Below, one piece after another: positions 40,400-64,000 of a stretch of 64,000 nucleotides of DNA. The position numbers and the translations under genes were made by a program. The notes below the pieces were generated by a model. It worked only from the letters and a program-made list of their open reading frames with translations. It ran no database searches and was not told where the DNA came from. Numbering within the stretch: position 1 is the stretch's first letter; every line of letters begins with the position of its first letter. This DNA comes from Longimicrobiales bacterium (lineage in GTDB: Bacteria > Gemmatimonadota > Gemmatimonadetes > Longimicrobiales > Gaopeijiaceae): assembly GCA_965242735.1 (NCBI GenBank), contig OZ251497.1:1140409-1204408 (forward strand), read 5' to 3'.

Positions 40400-40536
40400 G
40401 CTTGTCTCGATCCCGGCGCCGTCCGTTGCGGAGCCGGGTTTGCAACGGCGCCGCCTCTGCTATGCTATATTCTCGCGTCCGTTGGTCAGCTCGCCTGAAC
40501 ATGGATGGTCAGATCGCATGAATCACGCGTCCTCCG

Positions 40537-40547
40537 CCCCCCCCCCC
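40537..40547 (+). repeat. C11 homopolymer tract in the adhesin leader
   Basis: Counted directly: 4 C at 40537-40540 plus 7 C at 40541-40547. It lies 93 nt 5' of ATG 40640. Confidence 0.95.
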
Positions 40548-40639
40548 TTTGCTCGAGGGCTCCGGCCAGTGTCGGTCGTGGCCGCGCGCGGCTCAAGCCA
40601 AAGCGCGGGCGTACGGTCGCTGATTGCGCGCCGACTCCG

Positions 40640-43600: not shown

Positions 43601-46600
43601 GGTTCGGGCACGACGGCGCTGGCGTTTCACTACTGGGTTCGGGGCGCGGGCTCGGGCGGCGCCGGACCGGGCGGCGTGGACCAGACGACGGCCGGGGTCT
43701 CGGTGAGCGCGGGCGCGTTGTCGCTCAACGGCGGGACGATCAAGAACGTGGCGAACCCGGAGCGCGACTTCAGCGCGGCGCTGGGCTTGGGGAGCCATGC
43801 GCTGACGAACGATCCGAGCCACAAGGTGGACGGCAGCGTCGAGGCGGCGCCGGTGGTGACGGGCGTCGAGGTGGCGAGCCGGCCGACGGGCCCGACGGGC
43901 TACGGGTCGGGGGCCGGGATCGTGCTGCGGGTGTCGTTCAGCCGGGCGGTGACGGTGACGGGCGCGCCGCGCTTGGCGGTGGTGATCGGCATTGCGCGCC
44001 GCCGGGCGGCGTACGTGTCGGGCAGCGGGACGGACGTGTTGGAGTTCCGGTACCGCGTGGTGCCGTCGGACGCGGACCGCAACGGGTTCAGCGTGCCGGC
44101 GAACGCGTTGGAGCTGGCGGGCGGCGCGATCGGGCTTTCGGGCGGTTCGGAGGACGCGGAGCTGAGCTTGGGGAGCCACGCGCTGGCCGACGTGACGGGC
44201 CACGCGGTGGACGGCGGGACGGGCGCGGACGATCCGAGGTTCGAGCGCAGAGAGTACGTGTTCGAGCTGGCGGAGAACGTTGCCGGACCGGTCGAGCTGG
44301 GCGAGGTGAGCGCGGCGGACCCGTACGACAGCGACGTGAGCTATTCGCTGGGCGACGGCGCTCGCGGCTTCGAGGTGAACGAGTGGGGCGGCGAACTGCG
44401 GTACGTGGGGAGCGGCTTGGACGCGGAGTCGGAGCCGAAGCGGGTGATGAAGGTGTTGGCGACGGCGGAGGACGGTCGCGAGGGCGAGGCGCTGGTGATC
44501 GTGCACGTGTTGGACGAGAACGAGGCCCCGGCGTTCGCCGAGGACCGGCTGGCGTTCCGGCTGCCCGAGAACGTGGCCGGCCCGCTGGCGCTGGGCGTGG
44601 CGGAGGCGTCGGACCCGGACGAAGGCGACGCGCTGTCCTACGCTCTGGCGTCCGGGGACGCGGGGTTGTTCGAGGTGGACGCTGCGAGCGGCGAGGTGCG
44701 CTACGTGGGCGACGGCGAGGACTACGACGGTTCGGGACCGAAGTCGTGGGCGCTCGAGGTGGTGGCGACGGACAGGGCGGGCTTGAGCGCCGTGGCGGCG
44801 GTGGTCGTGTCGCTGGGCGACGAGAACGAGGCGCCGGCGTTCGCCGACTCGACGTACGCGTTCGAGCTGCCCGAGAACGCGGCGGGCCCGGTCGTCGTGG
44901 GGACGGTTCGCGCGATCGACCCGGACGCGAGCGACCGGCTGGTCTACGAGCTGGCGTCGGGCGGCGCGGGGCTGTTCGAGGTGGACGCCGCGAGCGGCGC
45001 GGTGCGCTACGTGGGTCCGGGCGAGGACGCGGAGACGGACGAGGGGCCGAAGTCGTGGGCGCTGGTGGTGCGGGCGACGGACGGCGGCGGGCTGAGCGCC
45101 GAGGCGTCCGTGTCGGTGTCGCTGCTGGACGTCAACGAGGCGCCGGCGTTCGAGGCCGAGCGCTATGAATGGGAATTCGACGAGAACGTTGCGGGTCCTT
45201 TGGCGCTGGGCGTCGTCCGGGCGAGCGACCCGGACCGGGCGGACACGACGCTGGCGTACAGCTTGTCGGGCGAGGGCGCGGCGTTGTTCGAGGCGGACGC
45301 TGCGAGCGGCGCGGTGCGCTACGTCGGCTCGGGCGAGGACTACGAGGCGGGCCCGACGTCGTGGACGTTCGAGGTCGTGGCGACGGACGGCGAGGGCTTG
45401 CAGGGCCGCGTGCCCGCCGAGGTGACGTTGCTGAACGTGAACGAGGCGCCGGCGTTCGCCGATTCGGCGTACGCGTTCGAGCTGGCCGAGAACCAGGCGG
45501 GTCCGGTCGAGCTGGGCCGCGTCGAGGCGTCGGACGAGGACGCGGACGACGAGCTGACGTACAGCTTGTCGGGCGGCGGCGGCCGGTTCGAGGTGGACGC
45601 TGCGAGCGGCGCGGTGCGCTACGTGGGTTCGGGCGAGGACTACGAGGCGGGCCCGCGGTCGTACGAGCTGGCGTTGCGCGTGACGGACGCGGGCGGCCTG
45701 TCGGGCGAGGCGCGCGGCGTGGTGGCGCTGCTGGACGTCAACGAGGGACCGGAGGCGGTGGGCGCGATGGCGCCGAAGACGCTCGAGGCCTACGGCGCTG
45801 CGGCCGAGGAGGACCTCGGACAGTACTTCCGCGATCCGGACGGCGACGCGTTGAGCTACGCGGCCGAGTCGTCGGCGCCGAGCGTCGCGGCCGTGTCGGT
45901 CGCGGCGGGCCGGCTGTCGATCGCGCCGCAGGCGATCGGCGTCGCGACGGTGACGGTGACGGCGCGGGACCCGGACGGGCTCGAGGGGACGCAGACGGTG
46001 GCGGTGACGGTCGAGGCGTCGCGTTCGGAGCGGGCGCGGGCGCTCGAGGCGGCGCTGACGGCGTTCGGACGCTCGGTGGGCACGGAGGCGGTCGACGCGA
46101 TCGGCGGGCGCCTGGGCGTCGAGTCGTCGAGCGTGCTGGGCCGTTCGCACGTCCAGCTGGGCAGCCGCTCGGTGGGGTGCGGCGCGCTCGGCGGCGAAGC
46201 GGCGTCGTCGTGCGGCTGGGCGCAGCTGGCGCGCGGCGCGTCGAGCCTGCTGGGCGTGCAGCTGAACGGTCCCGCCGCGATGGCCGGCCCAGCCGGCGGC
46301 TCGGGCGGCGGGAGCGTGTCGCTGGACGCCGTGTCGCTGCTGTTCGGCGACGGCTCCAGCGGCGCGCAGGACGGCTTGGCGAGCGGATTCGGCGGCGGCG
46401 GCGCGTACAACGGCCAGCAGGCGCCGCCGGAGCCGGGCGGCGGCGAGCAGCGCGGCGGCCTGAAGTTCGACCCGTTGTCGGGCGGCGATCTGCGGTCGCG
46501 CAGCTCGTTCCGGCTGTCGTTCGGCGACGACGGCGCCGACGCGGGCGCGAGAGACGCGGGCGCGCCGCAGTCGGCCGTCGGCACGGGCTGGACGGTGTGG

Positions 46601-48075: not shown

Positions 48076-49149
48076 ATGGAGGCGTCCCGCCCCGTGTGCG
48101 ACTTTCCCCGGACCGAGCTGCGGGGGAGCCGTCGGCCGCCGGCGCGCTCCCCCCGGCGGAGCCCCGGGGAGCGGCCCTTGCGCAAAGAGGCGAAGCACGG
48201 CGAGACGGACCGCGTCTACAAGCGGTTCTACGCGGACCCGGCCGTCGTCGAGGAGATCGTGCGCGACTTCGTCGGGGGCGCGTGGACGCGCGAGCTGGAT
48301 TTCGGCACGCTCGAGCGGCTGCCGACCGAGATGGTCGACCCCGTGCTGCCGGTCGTGCGGCACGCCGACATGATGTGGCGGGTGCGGTTCCGGGACCGGC
48401 CGCTGCACGTCGTCCTGCTGTTCGAGTTCCAGTCGGGACCGGACCCGAACATGGCGGTGCGGATCGCCGTCGAGACGGGCGTGTTCTACCGCGAGCTGGC
48501 CGAGCTGCGCAAGCGGGATCCCAGCGTGGGCGAGCATGTGGTCGTGCCAGTGGTGGTGAAGAGCTTCGAGGGCACGTGGACGGCGGCGCGGGGCATGGCC
48601 GAATGGCTGGGCGAGGGCGTGCCCGAGGAGCTGGTTCCATATGCGGCCGGCCGGCGCTACGCGTTGCTGGACGAGTCTGCGGAGGCGAAGAAGGCCGGGG
48701 CTGCCAGCGGCGGCTCCGGCGGCGTGGTGCGTGCGGGCATGGTGTTGCGCCACGAGCGCGACGTGACGCGGCTGGCGGCGGCGGTGCGGGATCTGGACGT
48801 GCAGTTGGACGCGTCGTCGGTCGCGCGCGGCGCGCTCGTGGAGTGGCTTCGGAGCCAGATGATAAATTCGGGTGCGACGGAGGCGGAGGTCGCGCACCTG
48901 GACACCCTACGGGAGGCGGGCGAGATGTACGTGAATCAATTCCAGGAAACGTTCCGCGACGGCTTGGCGCAGGGCCTCCAGAAGGCCCACGTCGACATGG
49001 CGCGGTGGAAGTTCGGCGAGGAGACGGCGCAGCGGCTGGCCGAGCTGCTCGAAGCGGCGGGAGACGCGGAGCGCGTCTCTCGAATCGGGCGGTTGCTCGT
49101 CGAGTGCGAGACGGGCGAAGAGCTGATCGCGAAGGCCGCGCGGGCCTGA
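48076..49149 (+). CDS. Rpn-family recombination-promoting nuclease / putative transposase (YhgA-like, PD-(D/E)xK)
   Basis: It has ..DRVYKRFYADPAVVEEIVRDF.., ..ERLPTEMV....RHADMMWRV.., ..VVLLFEFQS.. and a helical C-terminal domain. The N-terminal 35 aa are Arg-rich, and TTG 48178 is an alternative start. Confidence 0.7.
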   Translation: MEASRPVCDFPRTELRGSRRPPARSPRRSPGERPLRKEAKHGETDRVYKRFYADPAVVEEIVRDFVGGAWTRELDFGTLERLPTEMVDPVLPVVRHADMMWRVRFRDRPLHVVLLFEFQSGPDPNMAVRIAVETGVFYRELAELRKRDPSVGEHVVVPVVVKSFEGTWTAARGMAEWLGEGVPEELVPYAAGRRYALLDESAEAKKAGAASGGSGGVVRAGMVLRHERDVTRLAAAVRDLDVQLDASSVARGALVEWLRSQMINSGATEAEVAHLDTLREAGEMYVNQFQETFRDGLAQGLQKAHVDMARWKFGEETAQRLAELLEAAGDAERVSRIGRLLVECETGEELIAKAARA

Positions 49150-51456: not shown

Positions 51457-54390
51457 CTACTCCCATCTCCACAAGTAGTTCATCCGAACATAGAAGAAGG
51501 CGCCGTTGAAGCCGTAGGGAGTGTACTCGCTGTAGGGGTTGCCCACCAGCCCGGCGGTGGGGTTCAGGTCCGGAAACTGGTTCAGCACGTTCTGTCCGCC
51601 CAGCGCGAAGCTGGTGGACTCGCTCAAGGAATAGGCCGCTTCCAAGTCCACGGTGGGGTCGCCGTCGTAGAAGCGGACGTCTTCGGAGTCGTACCAGCCG
51701 CCGTAGTAGTTGAGACGGGCCAGGAAGCGCCAGGGTTCGGGGGCGTGGCTGGCCGACAGGCTCCAGCGCGTGCGCGGCAGGGCTTCCTGAAGCTCGCGGA
51801 TGCGCCGGGCGTCGATGACGGCGTCGCTCCACTTGGTCACCTTCGTGTCGGTGTGGTTGAAGAGAAGCGTGAAGACCGTCGCGCCGCCCAACGCCGCCGG
51901 TTCGTAGGTGGCCACCACGTCCACGCCCTGGGTCCGCGTGTCGAAGTCGTTGGTGAAGAAGCGGAAGTCCCGCACGTTGGCGGCGCTGGCGATCCCTTCC
52001 GCGAGAAGCTGCTCCACTTCGGGCGGGTCGAGCCGGAAGTCCTGCGTCAGCGATATCCGCTGGGTCACGGCGATCCGGAAGTAGTCCGCGGTCAGGTTCA
52101 GCGAGCCCAGTTCCAGCACGGCGCCGAGCGCGATGTTGAGGGATTCTTCCGGCTGCAGTTGCTTGCCGCCGCGCAGCCGGGCGACGGCCGAGGTGGACGC
52201 GATCGTGGCCTTGTTGACCGGAGCGTTGATCTCCCGGTCGAACTCGGTGGTCACGTTGAACGCGTTCTGCTGGCCCGGCGTCGGCGCCCGAAAGCCGGTG
52301 CTGACGCTGCCGCGCACGCCGACCGCGCTCGTCAGGCTGTAGCGGCCGGCCAGCTTGCCGTTCACCGTGACGCCGAAGTCGGAGAAGTCCTCGAAGCGCA
52401 GCGCGCCGCCGAGCGTCCAGCGGTCGTCGTCCGGGTCCCGCATCTCCGCGTCGCCGTAGAAGGCGTAGTTGGAACGGGACCAGTCGCCGACCGACAAGGG
52501 CCCGAAGCCGGGGAAGCCGTCCGAAGCCGCCCGAAAGCCCTGGGCCGCCAGCGGGCCGAACTCCCACGACTCTCGCTGGCCTCCGATGATCTCGAACCGT
52601 TCGTCGCGCCACTCGCCGCCGCCGGCCAAGTTGACCAAGTCGTTGATCCGGTAGGACAGGTCGGCGTGAACGTTGAGCTCCTGCTGCTGGTAGGAGCCGA
52701 GGTCGAAGGAGAGCGGCGTGTCGGGTCCGAGCGACGCGTTCGTCGTCTGGTCGATGAAGAAGTCGAGGCGATTGCTGCCGAAGCTGGCGCTGGCGTCCCA
52801 GTGCAGGCCGAACCCCGTTTCGCCCTTCAGTCCCGCGGCCACGGAGCCGTCCAGCAGGTCGGCGCCGAACTGGGGCGTGTATCCGCCCGGCAGGATTTCC
52901 TGGAACGAGAAGCAGTTGGGGTCCTCCTTCACCTTGGCGAACGCGACGGGGTCCGGCACGCCGCCGACGATGCGCACCTCGGGACAGGCCGCGGATCCGT
53001 CGAGAACGCCGTCGCGCGCGTCCAGCATGTCGGCAATGAGCAACGTCCGCCCTTGGTCGTTGCTGTATATGGCCTGCCGCTCGTTCGGGTTCCGGAAGTA
53101 GAAGCCGCCGACCACGGTCCGGGCGGCGTAGTTGCCGTGGCCGTAGAGCTGGACCGCGTCGCCCAGGAAAGCGCCGAAGTTGCCCCACAGCTTCACGTTG
53201 TCGGCAATGTCGGGCGAGCCCCACACCTGGGCCGGCGTCGCCACGGCGCTGTTGCCGGCCATGACGAGCCGCCGCGCGTCGTCGCGCTGCACGCTCCGGC
53301 TGGTGGGTCCGGCGTTGCCGTATTCGGCGCTGAAGTTGGCGAAGCCCGTCTCTCCCAGCGGCAGGCCCACGTTGCCCGCGACCGTGTAGCTCTGGCCGTC
53401 TCCGGCGACGGGGTAGCTGCCCATGCGGGCCTCGAAGCTGCCGCCGGAGCGATCGTCGCGCAGCTGGAAGTTCATCACGCCGGCGATCGCGTCGGAGCCG
53501 TACTGCGCCGACGCCCCGTCCCGCAGGATCTCGACTTGGCGGAGCGCGATGGCGGGCACCACGGCGATGTCCGGCCCCTGTGCGCCGTCGGCGACCCCGT
53601 TGCCGAACCACGCGATGGCGGCGGCCCGGTGGCGCCGCTTCCCGTTGACCAGCACCAGCGTGTGGTCCGGCGCCAAGTTGCGCAGGTTGGCCGGGCGCGA
53701 GATGGTGGCGGCGTCGGCGATCGGCTGGATGTTGACGTTGTACGACGGCGCGATGTTGCGCAGCAGGCTGCTGAGGTCGGTGTCTCCCTGATTCACGAAG
53801 TCGGCCGAGGCGATGGCGTCCACGGGCACCGGCGAGGCCGTGACCGCCCGCGGCCGGGCCCGGCTGCCCACCGTGACCAGCCCCTCGAGCGCGATCGCCG
53901 CTTGGGAGAGTTCCACGTCCAGGCGCGTCGTCTCGCCGTCGGCCACGACGACTTCCCGGAGCTGGGTCCCGTAGCCGACGAACGAAACGGCGACGTCGTG
54001 GGTCCCCGCCGGAATGCCGGAGATGCGGTAGAGACCCTGCGGGCCCGCTGCGCCGCCGAGGCCCAGATCGACGAGCGACACTTGCGCTCCCGCCAGAGCG
54101 GCGCCCGTGCCCGCGGCCCGCACGCGTCCTTCCAGCGTGCCTTGCGCGGCAAGGCCGCGGGGCCCGCCGACGAGCGCCAAGACGACCAGGACCGAGACGG
54201 CGGCCAAGCCCGCTCCCGATTTCGGGGCTCGCGCGAGGCGCCCGCTCGCGGAGGGCGTGCGGGCGCGGCAACCGGCCCAATTCCGCGCTGGGACGACCCG
54301 CCTATCTCGTCTCGTCGCGGCCTCTGGACTCGCGCCGGCATGTTGGCGGTCATGGGTGACCGTCAAGACCGGTCCCTGCTCTCGTCTCAT
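51457..54390 (-). CDS. TonB-dependent receptor with N-terminal carboxypeptidase-regulatory-like domain
   Basis: It has ..LEGRVRAAGTGAALAGAQVSLVDLG...G.YRISGIPAG.H.V..S.VGY.., a plug (..NLRNLAPDHTLVLVNGKR.. and ..ILRDGASAQYGSDAIAGVMNF..), and a barrel ending ..FFYVRMNYLWRWE. The start is uncertain: ATG 54390 or TTG 54207, the latter immediately before the signal peptide. Confidence 0.85.
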   Translation of the reverse strand: MRREQGPVLTVTHDRQHAGASPEAATRRDRRVVPARNWAGCRARTPSASGRLARAPKSGAGLAAVSVLVVLALVGGPRGLAAQGTLEGRVRAAGTGAALAGAQVSLVDLGLGGAAGPQGLYRISGIPAGTHDVAVSFVGYGTQLREVVVADGETTRLDVELSQAAIALEGLVTVGSRARPRAVTASPVPVDAIASADFVNQGDTDLSSLLRNIAPSYNVNIQPIADAATISRPANLRNLAPDHTLVLVNGKRRHRAAAIAWFGNGVADGAQGPDIAVVPAIALRQVEILRDGASAQYGSDAIAGVMNFQLRDDRSGGSFEARMGSYPVAGDGQSYTVAGNVGLPLGETGFANFSAEYGNAGPTSRSVQRDDARRLVMAGNSAVATPAQVWGSPDIADNVKLWGNFGAFLGDAVQLYGHGNYAARTVVGGFYFRNPNERQAIYSNDQGRTLLIADMLDARDGVLDGSAACPEVRIVGGVPDPVAFAKVKEDPNCFSFQEILPGGYTPQFGADLLDGSVAAGLKGETGFGLHWDASASFGSNRLDFFIDQTTNASLGPDTPLSFDLGSYQQQELNVHADLSYRINDLVNLAGGGEWRDERFEIIGGQRESWEFGPLAAQGFRAASDGFPGFGPLSVGDWSRSNYAFYGDAEMRDPDDDRWTLGGALRFEDFSDFGVTVNGKLAGRYSLTSAVGVRGSVSTGFRAPTPGQQNAFNVTTEFDREINAPVNKATIASTSAVARLRGGKQLQPEESLNIALGAVLELGSLNLTADYFRIAVTQRISLTQDFRLDPPEVEQLLAEGIASAANVRDFRFFTNDFDTRTQGVDVVATYEPAALGGATVFTLLFNHTDTKVTKWSDAVIDARRIRELQEALPRTRWSLSASHAPEPWRFLARLNYYGGWYDSEDVRFYDGDPTVDLEAAYSLSESTSFALGGQNVLNQFPDLNPTAGLVGNPYSEYTPYGFNGAFFYVRMNYLWRWE

Positions 54391-54558
54391 TATGCCTCCA
54401 GGCTTGCTGCGACATGTTTGGCGGTCATCGGCGACCGTCAAGCGGGTCCCTGCTCTTGGCTCATCGTGCCTCCAGGCTTGCTGCGACGTGTTTGGCGGTC
54501 ATGCATGACCGTCAAACCGGTCGCTGTTCTCGTCCGCCGCCTCCAGACTCGCCGCGAC
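54300..54558. repeat. 74/75-bp tandem repeat, about 3.5 copies, in the receptor gene leader
   Basis: The landmark GGCGGTCAT is found at 54345, 54420 and 54494. Each unit has a GGTCA-N4-TGACC-type inverted repeat (54348-54361, 54423-54436). The third is the perfect 14-bp palindrome GGTCATGCATGACC at 54497-54510. Confidence 0.85.
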
Positions 54559-54673
54559 CGCCTTCGGCGCCGGACCGGGCGGTGCCGGCGCGCGCTCCGA
54601 ACGCAGGGCAAGGGTCGGACGCGCGATGCGCATTAAAGTAAAACGATGTCGGGCGCGTCTTCGGCGCGACCGG

Positions 54674-57148
54674 CTACAAGTAGGCGTCGACGCGCATGTA
54701 GAACTGCCATCCGGAGTCGGTCCGCAGGCCGCCGCCCAGGTCGGCGGGGAAGCCCTTGGCCACGTCGAAGCGGACGCCGCCGGGGAGGACGACCCCCGCG
54801 CCCGCCGATCGGTACTGCGTGCCCGACGCCGAGAGCCAATCGCCGAACAGAGACATGCGGCCCAGCCAGACTCGGCGCTGGACGTCCGCCCGACCTCGCC
54901 ACACGACGGCGGCGTGGCGACGGGCCACCACGTGGCCGCGCAGAACGTCTCCGGAGCGGTCCAGGAGCCATGGATCGACCCGGCGTCCGCCGCCCCACGT
55001 GCGCGCGCCGCCGCCCTCGAGTCCCAAGGACCATCCGCCGCCGCGTCCCACCACCAATGCGACGGCGCCCGCCGCGCGGACCGTCCGCTCGTCGCCCAAG
55101 GCTCCTTGCAGCGAGACCTCCCCGCCGCCTTGGAGACCCCGCTGCTTCGCGCCTCCCCACCAAGGCGCCCAGGTCGCCTCCGCCCCGGCCCTGCCTTTGC
55201 GCATGTCGGGACCGAGTTCGGAGTGTCGTTCGGCGAACAGTCGCAAGGCCAACGACTCGCGGTTCCTGCGGGCGGACGACAGCCGGAGCGTGATGCCGTC
55301 CACCGCATTCCACTCGCGTTCGGGTTCGGCGCCGGCTGCCGAGTCCTCCGCAACGAGCCCGACGGGGCGCTGATCGCGGAACACGGACACGCGCAGCTTC
55401 CAGTCCGGAAACTCGCGCTCGACGGCCAGCGCCCCCTGCGGCTCGCGCAGCACGGTCCCCATTCGCACCGACGCGACGGCGCGGCCTGCGCGAAAGCGCC
55501 GCCAAAGGCGCGTGCCGACCGTGAACCCTTCTTGGCGGTTGTACCCGAGCAGCCGGAGCGTCAGGAGCGGGGGCTCGAAGAGCCAACGGCCGGACTCGCT
55601 CGCAACGCCGACGTCGGCGTCCGTCTCCAAAGCGGCCAGCTCGGAGGCCATTCTTCCGGCCTCGCCGCCGCCCGCCAGCGACACGTCGTCCCAGATGCCG
55701 TCGCCGAAGGGCTCCGCGGAGGCCGCGGTCGAATCCGGAGGCCAAACGATCCATTTCTGCGACGGATCGGCGCGCCCGGCCTCGTCGACTTGGTCTCCGG
55801 GCCGCGTCCAGCGCCGGGCCACTTGGGCAGCCGTTTCCGCGCCGCTCCCCGCCTCGCGAATCTCCTCGATCTCGAAGACGACTTGGCTCGACACCCGGCC
55901 GGAAAACGAGAAGTCCTGGAGGTCCTCGTTCGCGACCAACTCGTCCACGGGCGAGGCGAACCCCAGCCACGTGATGGAGCGCGGCAGCCAGTGCCGAGAA
56001 TCCCACAGCGCGTAGTCGGCCACCACCGACGCGACGCCGATCTCCATCTTGGGCAGGGCGGAGCTGAAGGCCGCGTTGACCAGCCTTCGCCAGACGCTCG
56101 GCCCGTCTCCGGCCGAATCGGACGCCGCGGCCGCCCGCGCTTCCTCGTCGCCGGGGGCCGTGCTGCCCAAGTCCACGAAGACTCCGGGGCCCCGTCCTCC
56201 TTCGCAGGCCAGGCACCACACCAGCTCCTCGTCGATCCGCTTCGCGGGGCGAAACGCGATCCGCACGAGGCCGAAGGACTCGGCGTCGATCCACATGACG
56301 GCGGCGAGAACCCCGACTTCGCGAGTTCTCGGCAAGGCGGCGACCGACACGGCCCGCACGGCCTCTCCACCGGGCAAGACGACCGACACCGTGTCGCCGG
56401 ACCGGTAGCGATACAGGCGCTCGGCGCCGGGGTCGAGGGGCGATGCGAACTGCTTCTTGCGAGGATCGCCGTGCCGTGGGTCGTAGGCGTCCGGCAACAT
56501 GGCCACGGCGTAGTCGAGCGGATTTCGCCAAGGATCGAGACCGCGGTTCTCGGCATTCAGGATGCCGTTCTCGCAGCCGTGCTGTCCTGCGAGAGCAGAA
56601 TGCAGCGCCCAATGCTTGTCCAAGCGCACGACGCGGGCGTCGTCGCGCGACCACCTGTAGCGAAGTGACTGGCGGCACTCCTGCAGCATGTGGGTCGAGC
56701 GGCGCCCGACCAACTGCCATTGCTGTCTCTCGTGCACGCGAGCGGTGTAGGACGCGAGCGCGAGCCGAGCGGAGTCCTGGGCCGCGCGCGCGCCTTCGAC
56801 GAGCGTCTGGGCCGCCGGGTCCAGGAAGGCGCTGGGCAAGTCGTCCGGCCCGGTTTGCTCGGGCGGCTGGGCTTGCGCGGCGCCGGCGGTTCCGAGGGAG
56901 GCCAAGCCGAGCAGGGCCAGTGCCGCTCCGGCCAGCCGCCCGAGTCGTTGAGGGTGCCCAGACCGAGCCAGCCCCAAGCCGTGCGGGTCGCCCAGCCCGG
57001 GCCAGCTGCCCAAGCTGCGCGGTCGTCCGCTCCGAGCCAGTTGCCCAAGCCGAGCCGGCCGCCCAAGTCGGGCCAGCTCGCCCTCGTCGCGCCAAGCCGG
57101 GCCAGTTGCCGAAGAACGGCCCCTTGTTCTTGTCGGACGAGTCGCCAT
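54674..57148 (-). CDS. large outer-membrane/secreted protein of unknown function (possible Omp85-like beta-barrel C-terminus)
   Basis: The 849-aa ORF has a signal-like ..GRLAGAALALLGLASLGTAGAAQAQ. The C-terminus ..GVVLPGGVRFDVAKGF......GWQFYMRVDAYL is barrel-like. Start is ATG 57148 or GTG 57223, and both lie upstream of an Arg/Leu/Gly hexapeptide-repeat leader. Confidence 0.6.
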   Translation of the reverse strand: MATRPTRTRGRSSATGPAWRDEGELARLGRPARLGQLARSGRPRSLGSWPGLGDPHGLGLARSGHPQRLGRLAGAALALLGLASLGTAGAAQAQPPEQTGPDDLPSAFLDPAAQTLVEGARAAQDSARLALASYTARVHERQQWQLVGRRSTHMLQECRQSLRYRWSRDDARVVRLDKHWALHSALAGQHGCENGILNAENRGLDPWRNPLDYAVAMLPDAYDPRHGDPRKKQFASPLDPGAERLYRYRSGDTVSVVLPGGEAVRAVSVAALPRTREVGVLAAVMWIDAESFGLVRIAFRPAKRIDEELVWCLACEGGRGPGVFVDLGSTAPGDEEARAAAASDSAGDGPSVWRRLVNAAFSSALPKMEIGVASVVADYALWDSRHWLPRSITWLGFASPVDELVANEDLQDFSFSGRVSSQVVFEIEEIREAGSGAETAAQVARRWTRPGDQVDEAGRADPSQKWIVWPPDSTAASAEPFGDGIWDDVSLAGGGEAGRMASELAALETDADVGVASESGRWLFEPPLLTLRLLGYNRQEGFTVGTRLWRRFRAGRAVASVRMGTVLREPQGALAVEREFPDWKLRVSVFRDQRPVGLVAEDSAAGAEPEREWNAVDGITLRLSSARRNRESLALRLFAERHSELGPDMRKGRAGAEATWAPWWGGAKQRGLQGGGEVSLQGALGDERTVRAAGAVALVVGRGGGWSLGLEGGGARTWGGGRRVDPWLLDRSGDVLRGHVVARRHAAVVWRGRADVQRRVWLGRMSLFGDWLSASGTQYRSAGAGVVLPGGVRFDVAKGFPADLGGGLRTDSGWQFYMRVDAYL
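56950..57115. repeat. about 18-nt-period degenerate array encoding (x-x-x-x-L-G)n just 5' of the signal-peptide coding region
   Basis: The translated leader is ..ELARLGRPARLGQLARSGRPRSLGSWPGLGDPHGLGLARSGHPQRLGRLAG.., with Gly at every 6th residue for six turns. In the DNA, GCC(C)AAG cores recur at 17-36-nt spacing. Confidence 0.7.
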
Positions 57149-57246
57149 GCGGCAATTTCGACGGAACGCGAACGGCGCCGCAACCGAGCGGACGCCCTTC
57201 CCGCGCCGCGCCCTTGTGCCCACGCGTCCTCCACCGGAGAGCCCTC

Positions 57247-58224
57247 GTGAACCCAGACGCTTCGCCGAACCGTTCCGCGCCCGGTCCCATCGCGATCACG
57301 GGCGCCAACAGGGGACTCGGGCTGGCCGCGGCCCGTTGGGTGGCCGAGCGCGGGCACGCCGTGGCTCTGCTCTGCCGAAGCGAGGAGCGGGGCAGGGCGG
57401 CGGCGGCCTCGTTGCCCCGTCCGGCCGGGCCGAGCGCGCACTGCGTGGTCGAAATCGACTTGGCTTCGCTGGCGTCCGTGCGACGGGCGGCCGAGCGCGT
57501 GACGGCCTTGGGGACCTTGGGTGGACTGGTCAACAACGCGGCCGTCATCCCGCAGGACCGCGCGGAGAGTCGCGACGGCTTCGAACTCCAGCTCGCGGTC
57601 ACGCACCTGGGCCACTTCCTGCTGACGGCGCTGCTGACGGACTCACTCCGCCGGGGCGTGACCGAGCGGGCCGGTCCGGGCGGGCGCGTGCGCGTCGCCA
57701 CGGTCTCTTCCGGCGCGCACCACGGCCCCGCGTTCGACTTCGACGACATCGATTTCCGGCGCCGGTCCTATCGCCCCTTGGTCTCCTACCAGCAGAGCAA
57801 GCTGGCCAACGTCCTGTTCACGCTGGCCTTGGCGCGGCGCGTGGCGGGCACCGGACTGGAAGCGGTCGCGCTCAGCCCGGGCGTCTGGGACACGGCGCTC
57901 TTCCACGACTACGCCAAGGGCGCGTCCTTTGGCGGCCTGCCCCACGCGTCTCCGATCGACGAGCGGGCGGGCCGCATCGTGGGCAGCTTGGTGGCGGGCC
58001 GCGCGGACGAGGACCTGAACGGGGCGTACATGAGCGAGCTGGAGCGCGCGTCGCCGTCGGAGGCCGCCTTGGGCGAGGAAGCCCAGGAGCGGCTGTGGGC
58101 GTGGAGCGAGCGGGCCGCCGGGCTTTCTTCGAACGCGGGGCCAGCGGCCGAGCGTGCAGGACTGGCCGGGCTTCAGGGCGACGGCGCCGGCCCGCGCGCC
58201 GCACCGCCCGGAGGGAACGTCTGA
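57247..58224 (+). CDS. SDR-family oxidoreductase (retinol-dehydrogenase-like)
   Basis: GTG 57247. The motifs are ..ITGANRGLGLA.. (TGxxxGxG), ..LVNNAAV.. and ..SSGAH....Y..SKLAN.. (YxxxK). Confidence 0.8.
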   Translation: MNPDASPNRSAPGPIAITGANRGLGLAAARWVAERGHAVALLCRSEERGRAAAASLPRPAGPSAHCVVEIDLASLASVRRAAERVTALGTLGGLVNNAAVIPQDRAESRDGFELQLAVTHLGHFLLTALLTDSLRRGVTERAGPGGRVRVATVSSGAHHGPAFDFDDIDFRRRSYRPLVSYQQSKLANVLFTLALARRVAGTGLEAVALSPGVWDTALFHDYAKGASFGGLPHASPIDERAGRIVGSLVAGRADEDLNGAYMSELERASPSEAALGEEAQERLWAWSERAAGLSSNAGPAAERAGLAGLQGDGAGPRAAPPGGNV

Positions 58225-58227
58225 GCC

Positions 58228-59562
58228 ATGCCGGACCGCATGGACCGCATCGTCTCGCTGTGCAAGCGGCGCGGCTTCGTCTTCCAGTCCTCCGAGATCT
58301 ACGGCGGGGCGGCGTCGGTTTGGGACTACGGCCCGCTGGGCGTCGAGCTGCGCCGAAACGTCGCCGACGCCTGGTGGTCCGCCATGGTGCACGCCCGCGA
58401 CGACGTGGAGGGACTGGACGCGGGCATCCTCATGCACCCGCGCGTCTGGGAAGCGTCCGGACACGTGGGCGGCTTTGCCGATCCGCTGGTCGAGTGCAAG
58501 GTCTGCAAGCGCCGCTGGCGGGCGGACCACTTGGCCGGGAGCGCCTGTCCCCGCAAGCCGTCGCGGGCGCCCGGAGAGCACGGCGACTGCGAGATCGACG
58601 AGCCTCGCCTCTTCAACCTCATGTTCAAGACGTTCATGGGACCCGTCGAGGAGGACGCGTCCGTGGTCTACCTGCGGCCCGAAACCGCCCAGGGCAGCTA
58701 CGTCAACTTCCTCAACGTGCAGCAGACGTCCCGGCAGCGCGTGCCCTTCGGGATCGCCCAGCTGGGCAAGGCGTTCCGCAACGAGATCACGCCGGGCAAC
58801 TTCATCTTCCGCACCCGCGAGTTCGAACAGGCCGAGATGCAGTACTTCGTCGAGCCCGGAGCGGACGACGAGTGGTTCGCGTATTGGCGCGACCAGCGGC
58901 TGGCTTGGCACTGCGACATGGGCGTCCGCCGCGAGAAGCTCCGCCTGGCCGAGCACGGGCCGGACCAGCTGGCCCACTATGCCAAGGCCGCCTTGGACAT
59001 CGAATACGAATTCCCCTTCGGCTGGCAGGAGCTCGAAGGCGTCCACAACCGCACCGACTTCGACCTCTCGCGCCACCAGGACTTCTCCGGCAAGCGGCTG
59101 CTCTACGTCGATCCGGGATCGGGCAAGCGCTTCCTGCCCTACGTCGTGGAGACGGCGATGGGCGTGGGCCGCGCCGTGCTCGTGCTGCTGGTGGACGCCT
59201 ACCGCGAAGAGGAGGTCGCCGGCGAGCCGCGCGTCGTCCTGGGCCTGCATCCCCGCGTGGCGCCCGTCAAGGCCGCCGTCTTCCCGCTGGTCAAGAAGCA
59301 CGGCATGCCCGAGACCGCCGCCGCCCTCCACGAGACCCTCCGCCGCGAGCGCATCCCCTCCTTCCACGACGTGGCCGGCTCCATCGGCCGTCGCTACCGC
59401 CGCCAGGACGAAGCGGGCACGCCCTGGTGCGTCACCGTGGACGGCGACACCGCGGAAGACCGCAGCGTCACCATCCGAGACCGCGACACCCTGGCCCAGG
59501 AACGCGTGGGGCTGGACCACGTGGTGGGGTGGATTCGAGAGCGGCTGCACGGGCTCGGATAG
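58228..59562 (+). CDS. glyQS: glycine--tRNA ligase (dimeric class II, GlyQS type)
   Basis: It begins MPDRMDRIVSLCKRRGFVFQSSEIYGG....WDYGPLG.ELRRN.. and has ..FRNEITPGNFIFRTREFEQAEMQYF.. and an anticodon-binding C-domain. Confidence 0.9.
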   Translation: MPDRMDRIVSLCKRRGFVFQSSEIYGGAASVWDYGPLGVELRRNVADAWWSAMVHARDDVEGLDAGILMHPRVWEASGHVGGFADPLVECKVCKRRWRADHLAGSACPRKPSRAPGEHGDCEIDEPRLFNLMFKTFMGPVEEDASVVYLRPETAQGSYVNFLNVQQTSRQRVPFGIAQLGKAFRNEITPGNFIFRTREFEQAEMQYFVEPGADDEWFAYWRDQRLAWHCDMGVRREKLRLAEHGPDQLAHYAKAALDIEYEFPFGWQELEGVHNRTDFDLSRHQDFSGKRLLYVDPGSGKRFLPYVVETAMGVGRAVLVLLVDAYREEEVAGEPRVVLGLHPRVAPVKAAVFPLVKKHGMPETAAALHETLRRERIPSFHDVAGSIGRRYRRQDEAGTPWCVTVDGDTAEDRSVTIRDRDTLAQERVGLDHVVGWIRERLHGLG

Positions 59563-60019
59563 ACGGGCTGACCGCCGGAGTGGTCGGCGGGCCATGGGCG
59601 GAGAAGGCCGCAAGCAGATTCGTCGAGAAAGCGTGGCGCCAGGCAATGTCGGCGCGGTCGCGCCCGGAAAGGGACGGGGGCCGAGAACGTCGATGGACAC
59701 GGGGACGATGCGCCCGTGGTCTGTTGCGAGGTGGTCCCTCCCTGGACCCCGGGTGTCGCCCGAATTCGGGGCGAACGGGCCAGTTCTGCTGTCTCGGCTG
59801 GGTCTCATCCCCCCAAGACCTTGGCCAGGGCTTCTGCCTGGTGCAAGGACGTCTGCCGGCGGTGGTGGCCATGCCGTGCGGACCGGTAGATTCATGCCCT
59901 TCGTCTCGCGGACTCCAACCTGGCAGAACAATCGGCTTGTTGGCCTGGTGGCCCCCGACACCGCCAACGATGCCCACAAGATGAACGCCCTGACTAGGAA
60001 TCTTGACATCGATAGCTAG

Positions 60020-61180
60020 ATGCGCGACCATTCCCGTCCCTACCCGTCCGCCCCACAACGATCCAGTACAGCCATGGTGTCCAGTCCGTCCCGCCCGGTC
60101 AGCCAAGTCCCGCTCTCGCAGCTCCGCCTTGATCGCGAGAATCCTCGCCTGCTTGGGCAAGCTAAAAAAGACTCCGAAGAGGCCATGATAGCCCGGTTGT
60201 ATCGTACCGCCGAGCTGGACGAGCTTCTCCAGTCCATTTCCACCAATGGCTACCTTGACATTGAACCATTGGTCGTGACAGACGCGGACGATGGCACCTT
60301 GATCGTTTTGGAGGGAAACAGGAGGCTTGCCACGCTGCGTCTGCTCTCCGACCCGACGCTTGCCGATCGCATTCGTCGTCAGGAACATGTCGAGATTCAG
60401 GTGCCCCCTGCGGATGCAGTAGTATCTGCGACTTTCAGGTTTTTGTCCGTGTATAAAGTCGCTAGCCGAAGCGAGGCTCGCACGTTCATCGGGTTCAAGC
60501 ACATTAACGGCCCGGCAAAGTGGAACGCGTACGCCAAGGCCAAGTTTGCATCTGATTGGCACAAGTCGGGAATCGGGCTTAGACAGATAGCTCGCGCGAT
60601 CGGAGATAGACACGACACGATAAAGCGTATGGTCTTTGCAATATATGTGTTGGAGCAAATCGAGTTCGAAATCAAAGATGTCGCCGCACCCAAGTTCAAT
60701 TTTTCCCATTTGTATACCGCCTTGGCGCGATCTCAGTACATGAGTTTCCTCGACATCAAAACTTCGTGGGCAAAGTATGATCCGGAGCCCAATCCGGTGC
60801 CAGCAGATCACTTAGCACAATTACGTGACGTTCTGACATGGATATATGGTTCTCGTCGCGACGGTGTTCAGCCCGTCATACGTGTGCAGAATCCCGACAT
60901 CAAGCGACTTGGTGAAGTTCTAGCTAGCGGCGAGGCTGTACACATTTTGCGCATTCAGGCCGATCTCGACTTGGCGCATGCCGCTACTGAGTCCGTGGAC
61001 ACTCGATTCACCGCTTCGCTTTTCCGAGCTCGTCACCACATTCGCGATGCGGCCAGTACACTCCGAGCCTACGATGGACGAGACGAATCGCTCGTAAATG
61101 TCGCGGAAGATATTATCGAAACAGCCAATAGCGTTCATCTTAGCATGCTCCGGAAGTGTCGGAAATCGGCATTGACATGA
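60020..61180 (+). CDS. ParB/Srx-fold N-terminal domain protein with central HTH-like segment (not a canonical partition ParB context)
   Basis: It has ..VPLSQLRLDRENPR.. and ..LIVLEGNRRLATLRLL.. (the GxRRxxA ParB-box position), then ..GLRQIARAIGDRHDTIKRMV... This is a long ORF in about 45% GC DNA. ATG 60074 is an alternative start. Confidence 0.75.
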   Translation: MRDHSRPYPSAPQRSSTAMVSSPSRPVSQVPLSQLRLDRENPRLLGQAKKDSEEAMIARLYRTAELDELLQSISTNGYLDIEPLVVTDADDGTLIVLEGNRRLATLRLLSDPTLADRIRRQEHVEIQVPPADAVVSATFRFLSVYKVASRSEARTFIGFKHINGPAKWNAYAKAKFASDWHKSGIGLRQIARAIGDRHDTIKRMVFAIYVLEQIEFEIKDVAAPKFNFSHLYTALARSQYMSFLDIKTSWAKYDPEPNPVPADHLAQLRDVLTWIYGSRRDGVQPVIRVQNPDIKRLGEVLASGEAVHILRIQADLDLAHAATESVDTRFTASLFRARHHIRDAASTLRAYDGRDESLVNVAEDIIETANSVHLSMLRKCRKSALT

Positions 61181-62238
61181 TACCGCTATACTTTCCTATC
61201 GACGAAGTCGTAGGCACGACGGTCAATTTTGACTTGGCAGCTGATTTCTTGGAACTAGCAGCCTTCTCGTCGACTACCTCAAGCGCAGCGACCTCCGTAG
61301 TCGCCAACGAGGCTTCCATTGGAGCATTTGATGATCACAGTAGTGTATCGGAAGAGATGGAGGGTGACGGCGAAAACCCCAACGTAGAGGATTTGATGCT
61401 TGGCACGGTGCACTGCCTTGTTCAACGCCGAGATCTGCTGAATGATCTGTACCCCTTTGATTTGGGTCCACAAGGCGACATTCTCAAGTATCGTAGATTG
61501 CCATGTGCAGATGAACGCCAGTCGATCGGTAGATCGGCATATATGCTTTGCTTGTTGCTTTCGAACCTTAGGTCGGTGTCTCCGATACTAGACGGATCGG
61601 CTCTTCACCCAGATGGGCGGCAGGAACAAAAACTTAGACGATTTTTTCAGTACTTCGCGACCGCGGCGGTGGCGGCCGACATAGGAGGTGATGCTTGGTC
61701 GTTTGGGTTCCCACGGCCAGATGGTTCAGGCTTTATTGATAAATTGACGGAGATTTGGACTAAGATAGGCGATGGCACAGTGCAACCGCAGCCAGGTGCA
61801 CCGAACCAGCCGAAGGACGATCAGATTGACGTCTTTGCGGCTCGGAGCCAGAAAGATGGCCTTCCAGGATTTCTTATCGTCGCTGCTCAGGTGGCCACCG
61901 GTCAGAGCTATCGGAAAAAATCGATCAAGGGTCATGTTGACGCGTTTCGGAAGCGTTGGTATTCGCATCAGCCCGTGACGGATTTTGTTGCATATATGGT
62001 TGTCCCTTTCGTGATTGACAAGGAGACGTTTATCGATACGGTCCGATTGGCCGGAAATTTGCTCCATCGAACGAGAGTGACCGTGAGGGCTGCTGAAGCG
62101 GCGAAACTTCGGCCTCATAGAAACATTGAGGGGTACGAATCTATGATTGAAGCTGCTCGATGGATTGCACGTTATCGAGATACGGTCATGGCGACAGATG
62201 GGCGACATGGCGGACGGGCGGCAGCAGATACGTCCTGA
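61177..62238 (+). CDS. hypothetical protein; C-half shows a degenerate Mrr/PD-(D/E)xK-like pattern
   Basis: ATG 61177 overlaps the upstream stop (ATGA), and GTG 61156 is an alternative. The 353-aa ORF lies in low-GC DNA. It contains ..KDDQIDVFAARSQKDGLPGFLIVAAQVATGQSYRKK.... No family recognised. Confidence 0.7.
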   Translation: MIPLYFPIDEVVGTTVNFDLAADFLELAAFSSTTSSAATSVVANEASIGAFDDHSSVSEEMEGDGENPNVEDLMLGTVHCLVQRRDLLNDLYPFDLGPQGDILKYRRLPCADERQSIGRSAYMLCLLLSNLRSVSPILDGSALHPDGRQEQKLRRFFQYFATAAVAADIGGDAWSFGFPRPDGSGFIDKLTEIWTKIGDGTVQPQPGAPNQPKDDQIDVFAARSQKDGLPGFLIVAAQVATGQSYRKKSIKGHVDAFRKRWYSHQPVTDFVAYMVVPFVIDKETFIDTVRLAGNLLHRTRVTVRAAEAAKLRPHRNIEGYESMIEAARWIARYRDTVMATDGRHGGRAAADTS

Positions 62239-62378
62239 TGTTTGGGTGAAGGCTCAACGGGGAGACGGATGGCAGCGGCGAGCGATTGCGCAAGTGGGCT
62301 CGGCGACGCATTGGGGCGGAGCATCGGCAACGCTGTTCTAGTGTTTAGTGCCAGCCAGCGATCCAGACGCGAGTGTCG

Positions 62379-63266
62379 ATGAAGTCGGCTGCGAGTTCTG
62401 GAACGGCATCGGCAGAACCGAGATGGATTAGTCCGCTTCGGTATCCGGGAGGGAAGGCAAGTTTGGTGGAGTTGTTGGGGAAAACGATACAAGCTAATGG
62501 GGTGTTCCAGAGGCCATATTATGAACCGTTCGTCGGCGGCGGAGGCGCGGCATTGGGCCTTCTTCAGAAAGGCGCGGTGTCTGCCGTGCATTTGAACGAT
62601 TACGATCCGTGTGTTTACGCTTTTTGGAAGGCGATTCTCGAGCAGTCGGCGCGGTTTGAGAAAGCGATTGGAGAAGTGCCCTTGACAATTGAAGAATGGC
62701 AAAGACAGAAATCTGTATACAAAGATGCATCGCACAGAAAGAGAAAATCATTTGCTTTAGGATTTGCAACCTTTTTCTTGAACCGTTGTAGTCGATCTGG
62801 CATTATATTTGGCTCGGCGCCGATAGGCGGGTATAGGCAAGATGGTAGATGGAAGATCGATGCACGGTTTAATCGGATAGGTTTGATTGAACGCGTATGG
62901 TGGCTGACGAAGCATCGCGACAGGATTTCTATTTCAAATGACGATGCTTTGGATTTCTTGAGGAACGGTGTTCCGCAGGGCAATGATCGAAAAATGGTAT
63001 TCGTGTATCTTGACCCACCGTACTACACGCATGGACGACGCTTGTATTTTAATTCGTATCGAGATGACGATCATCGCAAGCTGGCACGATACATGAAACG
63101 CCAGCGTACTCTCAAATGGATTATGTCTTACGACGACAGTGACTTTATTCGAGCTCTCTATGGCGACATGATCCGAAGCCATAAGGGGATGCAGTATAGT
63201 TTGCAAAAGAGGAATTGGACACGGGAATTGCTTATCGCGCCGGTATATGTCGACTTGCCAAACTGA
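62379..63266 (+). CDS. DNA adenine methyltransferase, D12 (Dam) class
   Basis: The motifs are ..LRYPGGKASL.., ..YYEPFVGGGGAAL.. (the AdoMet motif) and ..VYLDPPYY.. (the catalytic DPPY). GTG 62373 is an alternative start. Confidence 0.9.
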   Translation: MKSAASSGTASAEPRWISPLRYPGGKASLVELLGKTIQANGVFQRPYYEPFVGGGGAALGLLQKGAVSAVHLNDYDPCVYAFWKAILEQSARFEKAIGEVPLTIEEWQRQKSVYKDASHRKRKSFALGFATFFLNRCSRSGIIFGSAPIGGYRQDGRWKIDARFNRIGLIERVWWLTKHRDRISISNDDALDFLRNGVPQGNDRKMVFVYLDPPYYTHGRRLYFNSYRDDDHRKLARYMKRQRTLKWIMSYDDSDFIRALYGDMIRSHKGMQYSLQKRNWTRELLIAPVYVDLPN

Positions 63267-63595
63267 TTTGAGGGACGAGGAGTGTGAGCAATTGGCATTT
63301 TTAACATGGCGTACGAGCTGGTCAGGAAGCGGTAGGCAGTTGGATTCGCCATCGTGCGGGGAGATGTCCAGCATATGCAGCCGGGCGTGCTCGTGGGAGA
63401 TGGAAGGGGGCTGCATCGGAGCCGCCGTGACGCCGTCCGGGAGCACAGCGGTCTGCGCGGGCGGTCGGTGGGCCGGAACGGTGCCACCATCCGTCACCAT
63501 CTCGGAGGCGACGGTCCACGCCCTCCGAAGCATGGCCGTGGACATCGACACGGTGGCAATTTGGTCTGAGGCCGCGCTTCCGCCACAGGAGCCGG

Positions 63596-64000
63596 TTACG
63601 GCCGTCCGGGGCGGCTCACGTCGATCACGACAATCTTGATCTGGTTGCGCTCGTTCGTGGACAGCAGCTCTTCCAAGCCGCATGCCAGCTCACTGGGGCT
63701 GGCGGGAGGTTGCCCGTCGGACGGCGGCTTGACGGGCTCGCGGTCGTTCTGTCCGAACCACAGAACGAGGTAGATGCCGTGTTCCTTCGCGTCCGGATCG
63801 CGGACGTAGTTCTTGACCAGTTGCGCGTGCAACGCGCTCCAGAGCTGGCGGCTGCTGCTCTTCTTGATCTCTATGGGAATGGCATGGCTACCAAGCCGAA
63901 CGCGAATATCGGCCCGTCGATTTTCGGCGCAGCTGGCCTCCCGGCTGGCGTTGACCTCGTCCGGCAGTTGTTTGCGAAGATGTGACAGCAACGCGTTTCG
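63596..64000 (-). CDS. C-terminal part of a PD-(D/E)xK-like nuclease-domain protein (5' end outside window)
   Basis: The frame is open to the window edge. It contains ..ENRRADIRVRLGSHAIPIEIKKSS....LVKNY.. (a D...E-x-K pattern) followed by ..GIYLVLWFG... GC is intermediate. Confidence 0.5.
   Translation of the reverse strand, partial: RNALLSHLRKQLPDEVNASREASCAENRRADIRVRLGSHAIPIEIKKSSSRQLWSALHAQLVKNYVRDPDAKEHGIYLVLWFGQNDREPVKPPSDGQPPASPSELACGLEELLSTNERNQIKIVVIDVSRPGRP

Follow-up and report, generated by a model that had tools for sequence, protein, structure and literature searches.

A compact gene cassette that is very probably a defence module of the restriction-modification (R-M) type was identified in a 64,000-nt stretch of the genome of a Longimicrobiales bacterium (contig OZ251497.1, forward-strand positions 1,140,409–1,204,408), which is referred to here as the window. 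The cassette consists of three co-directional genes in a block of low GC content. Gene 1 encodes a ParB/sulfiredoxin (Srx)-fold protein, gene 2 a putative nuclease effector, and gene 3 a D12-class N6-adenine DNA methyltransferase. A horizontally acquired R-M-like defence module of three components is the best overall explanation of the data and is favoured with somewhat better than even confidence. No description or name of a trio of ParB, PD-(D/E)xK-fold protein and methylase was found in the resources and literature searched. The N-domain of gene 1 and the methylase gene 3 can be assigned to PADLOC families of PD-lambda-5, a system already named. The initial annotation, made from the letters alone, had proposed an undescribed module and had listed a match to a named defence or R-M system as grounds for refutation. 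With two of its three parts in PD-lambda-5 families, the cassette bears out only half of that proposal. The match is partial: PD-lambda-5 has no gene 2, its HEPN half is missing from the cassette, and the cassette has three genes instead of two.

The GC content was profiled in 500-nt windows. It is 0.67–0.75 over positions 52000–59999, 0.46–0.57 over 60000–63499 and 0.63–0.65 beyond. The trough (~59990–63330) follows glyQS and has a mean of about 0.51, compared with about 0.70 for the chromosomal backbone; the value is 0.705 for the whole window, 0.53 for genes 1 and 2, and 0.48 for gene 3. The sharp drop had been noticed earlier from hand counts at 58261–58320 and 60661–60720, which were exact (68.3 and 45.0%). 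A return to backbone-like values after about 63330 had also been announced: the GC content does rise there, but only to about 0.63–0.65 and not to 0.70, and the next gene, which is EruA-like, has an island-like composition. A foreign origin of the block is concluded because of its GC content of 0.51 versus 0.70, and because blocks of genes 1 and 2 also lie below their flanks in most of the other genomes compared.

The trough contains three co-directional open reading frames (ORFs) on the + strand, at 60020–61180, 61156/61177–62238 and 62373–63266. They are considered real genes because gene 2 has more than 600 homologue clusters and because the synteny is conserved. As reported in the initial annotation, genes 1 and 2 share an ATGA overlap. 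It is 4 nt long, the stop codon TGA of gene 1 occupying 61178–61180 and the ATG of gene 2 starting at 61177, which suggests translational coupling. All the motifs quoted at that stage (LDRENPR, EGNRRLATL, a D-x-IDV...QV pattern, PGGK, EPFVGGGG and DPPY) are present in the translations. No tRNA was found at the low-GC block and no att-like direct repeats were found flanking it. A consensus scan for promoters and terminators was uninformative, with site counts at or below the shuffle expectation.

Gene 1 (60020–61180, + strand) encodes 386 amino acids (aa) from ATG 60020 or 369 aa from ATG 60071. The second start is likely the correct one, since the homologues are 365–367 aa long, and the residue numbers of gene 1 (A3 numbering) count from it. 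A TTGACA hexamer is found at 60004–60009, just 5′ of the first ATG; no site was called there by the consensus promoter scan. Only weak, sub-threshold ParB matches were obtained with Pfam (ParB_N) and NCBIfam (TIGR00180). A family profile built from 30 sequences matches the ParB/Spo0J N-domains of solved structures, with EGNRRLAA aligned to the GERRxRA box of ParB. The ParB/Srx fold with a helix-turn-helix (HTH)-like segment that had been proposed for gene 1 is supported by this match to ParB N-domains and by that to the ParB half of a split PD-lambda-5_A (hhalign, 98.9%). The translation contains LDRENPR and EGNRRLATL; LDxxNPR and EGNRRLA are invariant in the 30 sequences, with residues D21, N24, P25, R26 and E81-G82-N83-R84-R85. 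Also common to the family are FIGFKHINGPAKW, the HTH-like segment IGDRHDTIKRMV and a C-terminal half that is helical and conserved. Both nucleotide-binding boxes of the ParB-CTPase fold (Box I, NPxxPR-like; Box II, GxxRxxA) are conserved, and binding of CTP is plausible from these boxes. Replacement of the GNRR arginines by Ala was shown in a survey of the fold to abolish NTP binding (PMC12704722). Over the PHROGs, gene 1 belongs to phrog_3694 (3.5e-76).

Gene 1 matches 25 PADLOC profiles of PD-Lambda-5_A, the best with an E-value of 3e-21. In the best alignment, aa 28–187 are matched to positions 5–169 of the 466 of the profile. All alignments are confined to the first ~190 profile positions, mostly 90–175. 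The PADLOC candidate PDC-M38A is matched by aa 63–360 over positions 58–349 of 715 (E 2e-18), and the second half of its profile is matched by neither gene 1 nor gene 2; PDC-M38 is not mentioned in the literature searched. A HEPN domain was considered for the C-terminus of gene 1 and rejected, as there is no conserved Rx4-6H motif and hhalign gave 0.5% to the HEPN half of PD-lambda-5.

Gene 2 (61177–62238, + strand) encodes 353 aa, modelled as an N-terminal helical domain followed by a C-terminal domain that weakly resembles the Mrr/MspJI-type PD-(D/E)xK fold. No match was found in Pfam, NCBIfam or PADLOC, and there is no named model for the protein in Pfam, PHROGs v4, PADLOC v2 (2023) or NCBIfam r20; it matches phrog_14650 with an E-value of 9.6e-27. 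The homologues form more than 600 clusters at about 53% identity across phyla. An exhaustive profile search gave 834 representative clusters (50% identity), almost all of them stand-alone proteins of 320–360 aa. The translation contains DDQIDVFAAR...AAQVATG, and the core motif of the family is K-D-x-G-(I/F/L)-D-(V/I)-x-A ... G-Q-(V/C)-(A/G)-x-G ... K. Over 125 diverse sequences, R84, P93, D214, D218, Q238 and R298 are invariant and D23, E26, Y92, F94, Y122, R180, D227, A240, G242, K248 and P277 are nearly so. The invariance of D214, D218, Q238 and R298 argues for a conserved active site.

The AlphaFold2 (AF2) model computed from the 125-sequence alignment has a predicted local distance difference test score (pLDDT) of 94.3 and a predicted template-modelling score (pTM) of 0.92. 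In an earlier model, computed from 22 close homologues, the conserved core (aa 200–292) had a pLDDT below 50 and Foldseek found nothing. Around the motif, the model has the αβββαβ order of the Mrr/MspJI-type PD-(D/E)xK core. The top Foldseek matches in the PDB are MspJI, AspBHI, VC1899, Can2/Card1/Cdn1 and Bse634I, and those in BFVD are proteins labelled “Restriction endonuclease”, “Mrr-like domain” or “PD-(D/E)XK nuclease”. Most of the top-ranked matches point to a restriction-endonuclease-like fold, each being individually weak. The degenerate Mrr-like character attributed to gene 2 from its pattern of residues is in agreement with the model, the structural matches and the conserved motif. 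Foldseek also returned repeated weak matches over ~86 residues to a forkhead/winged-helix domain, which hint at a DNA-binding N-terminal domain. A HEPN domain was rejected for gene 2 as well. An R290-x6-H297 string is present, but neither R290 nor H297 is conserved in a 114-sequence alignment, and hhalign to the HEPN half of PD-lambda-5 gave 0.07%.

Gene 3 (62373–63266, + strand) is a D12-class (Dam-type) N6-adenine DNA methyltransferase, as it had first been annotated, and is presumed to be the protective modification enzyme. Its start is probably ATG 62379, which is preferred because a 295-aa product from there is on record. It matches Pfam MethyltransfD12 (3.9e-18), PADLOC PD-Lambda-5_B (PDLC04018, 7.1e-94, over positions 19–290 of 297 aa) and PADLOC MTase_II (6.9e-73). 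The catalytic motifs are intact, with FVGGGG (motif I, in EPFVGGGG) and DPPY (motif IV); PGGK is also present. A solitary regulatory Dam was considered and rejected. The gene lies in a low-GC island, its score of 60 bits is under the NCBIfam cut-off of 115 bits for the Dam subfamily, and it is linked to genes 1 and 2 in all close relatives, in varied contexts.

The conservation of the neighbourhood was examined by a synteny scan with one genome per species, which returned 80 loci. They belong to Vicinamibacterales, Binatia, Longimicrobiales, Latescibacterota, Caldilineaceae, Dehalococcoidia, Nitrospirales, Spirochaetia, alpha- and gammaproteobacteria, and Ca. Synechococcus spongiarum. A gene 1 homologue is found directly 5′ of gene 2 in all 80, nearly always with an overlap of a few bases, and a DNA methylase adjoins the pair in 69. 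The adjoining methylase is usually on the same strand, with ends that overlap or abut. In 58 of the 80 loci it is a downstream enzyme of another family, with FDPFCGRGT ... SPPY motifs (Pfam N6_N4_Mtase, PADLOC MTase_II); it is a D12 enzyme in nine, and in two a large N6_N4 methylase lies just upstream. The same order, a gene of ~370–400 aa followed by gene 2 with an adjoining methylase, is found with gene 2 relatives of only 25–31% identity. The strictly conserved unit is the pair of genes 1 and 2; the methylase is mostly present, with its family swapped. The D12 version is restricted to a minority of the family that includes the subclade of the window (67–79% identity), in which the D12 methylase is kept in differing genomic contexts. 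The closest relatives (79 and 71% identity) likewise carry the D12 trio in different contexts.

The GC content of the gene 1 and 2 block was compared with that of its flanks in 76 related loci. The median difference is −0.05 and the minimum −0.23, and the block is never clearly above its flanks. This lowered GC content is a signature of horizontal transfer. In the subclade of the window, one locus (L096) forms part of an extensive defence island, in which SLFN/AlbA_2, DUF4143 ATPases, a type III-like R-M system and a giant SEFIR/TIR protein are encoded. The R-M or defence logic proposed in the initial annotation is borne out by the conservation of the neighbours in unrelated genomes and by such defence-island positions. 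In two Gemmatimonadota-type loci (Gemmatimonadaceae and Longimicrobiales), L044 (535–5872) and L066 (6625–12061), the gene 1–gene 2 pair is immediately followed by a second, divergent gene 1-like protein on the opposite strand, and this second protein is followed by a D12 methylase of the PD-Lambda-5_B type; the layout suggests a pair of related modules in convergent, tail-to-tail orientation. Many of the carrier genomes seem, from their names, to come from sponge-associated bacteria (Ca. Synechococcus spongiarum, Poriferihabitaceae, Spongiisociaceae, Caldilineaceae bins), and one neighbouring locus encodes ankyrin-repeat and Fic proteins.

A related cassette is carried by phages. A tblastn search of phage genomes with gene 1 returned P2-like phages, namely vB_EcoM-12474, Wphi, L-413C, HQ103 and a P2 record. 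In their trio, the first gene is annotated as “ParB N-terminal domain-containing protein” and the second, which overlaps it, as “hypothetical protein”; the third encodes a C5 methylase in convergent orientation. Examples are gp98-gp96-mth of Wphi, gp04-gp05-gp06 of vB_EcoM-12474III, and the prophages of E. coli O145:H28. The trio lies between the portal gene Q and the replication gene A, a position that is a defence hotspot of P2 with cargo such as old and tin (Vassallo et al., Rousset et al.; PMC9519451). Gene 1 and its phage counterpart gp04 both match phrog_3694 from end to end, although gene 1 is only ~23–29% identical to the P2-like proteins. Gene 2 and gp05/gp96 share phrog_14650, a relationship seen by profile comparison only. 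The two are colinear (hhalign E 4.5e-5 and 9e-4) and their catalytic-type motifs match, with PKDDQVDVFAAR corresponding to PRGDGGFDIVAT and AAQVATG to LGQCGAQ. The P2-like cassette resembles that of the window in its three-part architecture and adjoining methylase, but the phage methylase is of the C5-cytosine type and encoded on the opposite strand, and that of the window is D12. Copies of the E. coli prophage version with at least 99% identity were found in 36 complete genomes, O145:H28 outbreak strains among them, and are annotated only generically in RefSeq. No functional study of the P2-like cassette, including orf96 of Wphi, was found in the literature searched. The methylase neighbourhood of Citrobacter phage phiNP was also inspected and is not this system, as it consists of an AAA ATPase and a methylase.

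The closest named system is PD-lambda-5 of E. coli ECOR7, listed as “ParB/HEPN, methyltransferase”, described as a compacted “RM+Abi” and shown experimentally to give broad protection against phages (Vassallo et al. 2022). The likeness comprises the ParB/Srx N-domain subfamily, with the shared motifs NPR, GY(L/M)D(I/F)EP(L/I)VV and EGNRR, the D12 methylase of the PD-Lambda-5_B family in the window, carriage by mobile elements and prophages, and an R-M-like logic. That the cassette is simply a canonical PD-lambda-5, a ParB-HEPN protein and a D12 methylase with the A gene perhaps split, is very improbable despite the 25 PD-Lambda-5_A profiles matched by gene 1 and the PD-Lambda-5_B match of gene 3 (7e-94). 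A natural split of the A gene is known from Vibrio phage ValB1MD-2 (L089, 3132–5571), where PD-lambda-5_A is divided into the overlapping gp42 (ParB half) and gp41 (HEPN half), which cover profile positions 4–238 and 250–502, with the B methylase gp40 downstream; gp42 and gp41 are labelled hypothetical in the record. The gene 1 family resembles the ParB half (hhalign 98.9%, E 3e-17). No resemblance to the HEPN half was detected by hhalign with gene 1 (0.5%) or gene 2 (0.07%). The alignment of gene 1 to PD-Lambda-5_A does not go beyond the first ~190 positions, the gene 2 family is without a PADLOC match, its Rx6H-like string is not conserved, and its model is of an α/β nuclease type rather than an all-helical HEPN. 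PD-lambda-5 has two genes, A with a C-terminal HEPN half and then B; the cassette has three, with the separate, strictly conserved PD-(D/E)xK-fold protein of gene 2 (330–350 aa in the family), which has no equivalent in PD-lambda-5, encoded between the ParB-type gene and the methylase. Versions with two genes or with a split A gene have a different appearance. Unlike in PD-lambda-5, the methylase is not D12 in most loci of the gene 1 and 2 family. As neither the HEPN half nor the two-gene layout was found when looked for, the cassette is not counted as a PD-lambda-5 system. From sequence comparison, it is rather an evolutionary sister, with a shared ParB-type module and adjoining methylase, in which a protein with a predicted DNase fold replaces the HEPN RNase-like domain.

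Three further explanations were weighed against an R-M-like defence module. The cassette could serve the self-protection or addiction of a mobile element, the methylase protecting the element and genes 1 and 2 forming a post-segregational killer or an anti-restriction or regulatory pair, with gene 2 perhaps inactive. The carriage by P2-like phages and prophages and the low-GC signature of transfer would fit, as would the gene 2 motif devoid of its canonical lysine and the common occurrence in phages of fusions of the ParB fold with methylases, for which an anti-defence role has been suggested (PMC12704722). This explanation is nevertheless unlikely, considering that the P2-like trio occupies a hotspot for defence cargo such as old and tin, that the bacterial copies lie among defence genes without phage genes, and that the four invariant residues of gene 2 indicate a conserved active site; moreover, an R-M system may serve both addiction and defence. 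Quite improbable is a modification-dependent, type IV-like pair of genes 1 and 2, comparable to GmrSD, SspE or BrxU, beside an independent or orphan methylase. It is suggested by the best structural matches of gene 2, MspJI and AspBHI, which are modification-dependent enzymes, by several loci that lack an adjoining methylase, and by the variable methylase family. It is at odds with the methylase adjoining in 69 of the 80 loci (and as fragments in four more), mostly in the same orientation and with ends that touch or overlap, and no DUF262 or DUF1524 was detected. A type IV enzyme beside an active methylase also risks self-cleavage. The methylation by PD-lambda-5 is sensed by Mrr in K-12, as deduced from the use of an mrr-deletion host by Vassallo et al. 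2022. Finally, gene 1 could be a partition ParB of a plasmid or phage, or the ParB of a terminase-methylase packaging locus, and the cassette a remnant of maintenance or packaging. The weak ParB_N and TIGR00180 matches, the portal and terminase genes next to the P2-like cassette and the phage ParB-terminase-methylase loci already described (PMC4738411) would be compatible with such an origin. It is hardly credible given that the invariant partner of gene 1 is a nuclease-fold protein, that the position in P2 is a known variable defence hotspot, and that no ParA, terminase, replication or integrase gene is found among the ORFs sampled near the copy in the window or in the related bacterial loci inspected gene by gene.

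Comparison with other known systems places the cassette outside them. Operons of ParB, MAE_28990-HEPN and a DNA methylase were predicted computationally by Anantharaman et al. 2013 (PMC3710099). They likewise combine a ParB-fold protein, a separate effector and a DNA methylase in a predicted conflict system. The effector of those operons is a HEPN RNase. Gene 2 lacks a conserved Rx4-6H motif, and its model resembles an α/β restriction-endonuclease-like fold. With type II R-M systems and Mrr/MspJI nucleases, the cassette shares a methylase beside a protein whose modelled fold and “D-x3-D ... Q-x-” motif resemble those of Mrr/MspJI nuclease domains. The motif lysine present in Mrr/MspJI nucleases is Ala/Gly in gene 2, and no sequence-level match of gene 2 to a solved or curated restriction enzyme family was found. 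Restriction and modification enzymes suffice in type II systems, whereas the ParB-fold gene 1 accompanies gene 2 in 80/80 loci; the cassette is not classical type II because of this obligate third component. In GmrSD, SspE and BrxU, a ParB-like DUF262 NTPase is fused to an HNH-type DUF1524 nuclease, and these modification-dependent systems have no cognate methylase. The concept of a ParB/Srx-fold nucleotide-binding domain coupled to a defence DNA nuclease is common to both, but those systems are single chains with an HNH/His-Me nuclease and without a methylase, unlike the window cassette with its adjoining methylase, and the cassette has no Pfam match to DUF262 or DUF1524. Regarding ParABS, no ParA, replication or integrase gene was found among nine sampled ORFs and glyQS near the window copy or in the relatives inspected; parS was not searched for. 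The cassette is neither of the GmrSD type nor a partition system.

The reading as an R-M-like defence module is supported, among other things, by the adjacent EruA-like NACHT gene, by the defence island of L096, by the hotspot position in P2 and by the phage protection shown for the related PD-lambda-5. The division of labour among the three genes can be proposed only tentatively, at slightly less than an even chance. The methylase would mark host or self DNA. Gene 1 would bind DNA as a sensor or clamp gated by a nucleoside triphosphate (NTP), with nucleotide binding as the switch; CTP is used as a switch by the ParB fold, and ATP or GTP by other members of the fold (PMC12704722). By interacting with gene 2, gene 1 may find unmodified DNA and recruit or license gene 2, which would cut the unmodified DNA of an invader. 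As a DNase-fold protein takes the place of HEPN, direct restriction is expected, and not the “RM+Abi” suggested for PD-lambda-5.

Several points weigh against this reading. The Foldseek E-values of gene 2 are marginal, ~1e-3 at best, with template-modelling (TM) scores of ~0.25–0.26, and profile searches of PDB chains with the gene 2 family gave no meaningful match. The canonical Lys of (D/E)xK is replaced by Ala/Gly (D218 ... Q238-x-A240), so that nuclease activity is not assured; K248, which lies nearby, may substitute for it. About seven of the 80 loci have no recognisable adjoining methylase and four have methylase fragments only. If the restriction partners are sequence-specific, the clade-wise swapping of methylases would require the specificity to co-evolve.

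With these reservations, the cassette may represent a distinct and widespread class of R-M system, a proposal that falls somewhat short of being probable. In this class, a clamp or sensor of the ParB-CTPase fold would license a separate, non-canonical Mrr-like nuclease, the methylases (N6A, N4/N6 or C5) would be interchangeable, and phages of the P2 family would contribute to its spread. This would be an NTP-switch-controlled restriction built on a fold of chromosome segregation. If confirmed, the R-M-like family would be sizeable (at least 834 clusters at 50% identity) and present in many phyla and in P2-like prophages of pathogenic E. coli. It would also be a tractable model, including in E. 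coli, for the control of a nuclease by the ParB-CTPase fold, a function left open in a recent survey of this fold (PMC12704722). Without a model for gene 2, the searched releases of PADLOC (v2, 2023), Pfam, PHROGs and NCBIfam either overlook the module or might label it wrongly as PD-lambda-5.

Downstream of the cassette, the window ends within the 3′ end of an EruA-like NACHT antiphage gene (63596–64000, − strand), which is context and not part of the cassette and continues past the window end. It matches NCBIfam NF058535 (antiphage_EruA) with an E-value of 7e-39 over profile positions 1193–1318 of 1318. In a matching metagenome scaffold (L001, 4656–10189), whose called gene 2 product is 100% identical to that of the window, the EruA-like gene is complete (1424 aa, DUF8371) and followed by an AAA_14/DUF4143 ATPase. 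The GC content on the EruA side is 0.61–0.66, under the 0.70 of the backbone, and the defence island is therefore composite. In the public gene calls of this scaffold (1080–3298, corresponding to 60020–62238 of the window), gene 1 is missed in favour of two antisense ORFs and gene 2 is shortened to 280 aa. Gene callers evidently mis-annotate the low-GC islands of high-GC genomes. Over 61750–63000, which takes in gene 3 and the 3′ portion of gene 2, the GC skew is strongly positive (+0.17 to +0.26), in contrast to the rest of the region.

Upstream, the neighbour of the cassette is glyQS (58228–59562), and the 457-bp spacer between glyQS and gene 1 (59563–60019) has a backbone GC content of ~0.67–0.72. 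Nine ORFs were sampled over 36.5–58.2 kb. They are ordinary chromosomal genes such as those for DctQ, iPGM, a giant cadherin-domain protein, an amidohydrolase, NifU and a TonB-dependent receptor. The initial annotation had seen nothing nearby to explain gene 1 as a partition protein, and indeed no integrase, ParA, replication or phage gene was found among these nine ORFs and glyQS. The sole gene of mobile-element type among the nine encodes a YhgA-like putative transposase (48076–49149, + strand; Pfam Transposase_31, 6.6e-7), ~11 kb upstream of the cassette. An 849-aa ORF (54674–57223, − strand) has a backbone-like GC3 of 0.84 and no Pfam match at 1e-5. The giant cadherin-domain ORF (40505–47755, + strand) encodes 2416 aa with cadherin and bacterial Ig domains. 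A second giant ORF (21097–28857, + strand) encodes a 2586-aa SprA-like protein (type IX secretion), which is consistent with an FCB-group or Gemmatimonadota-like host.

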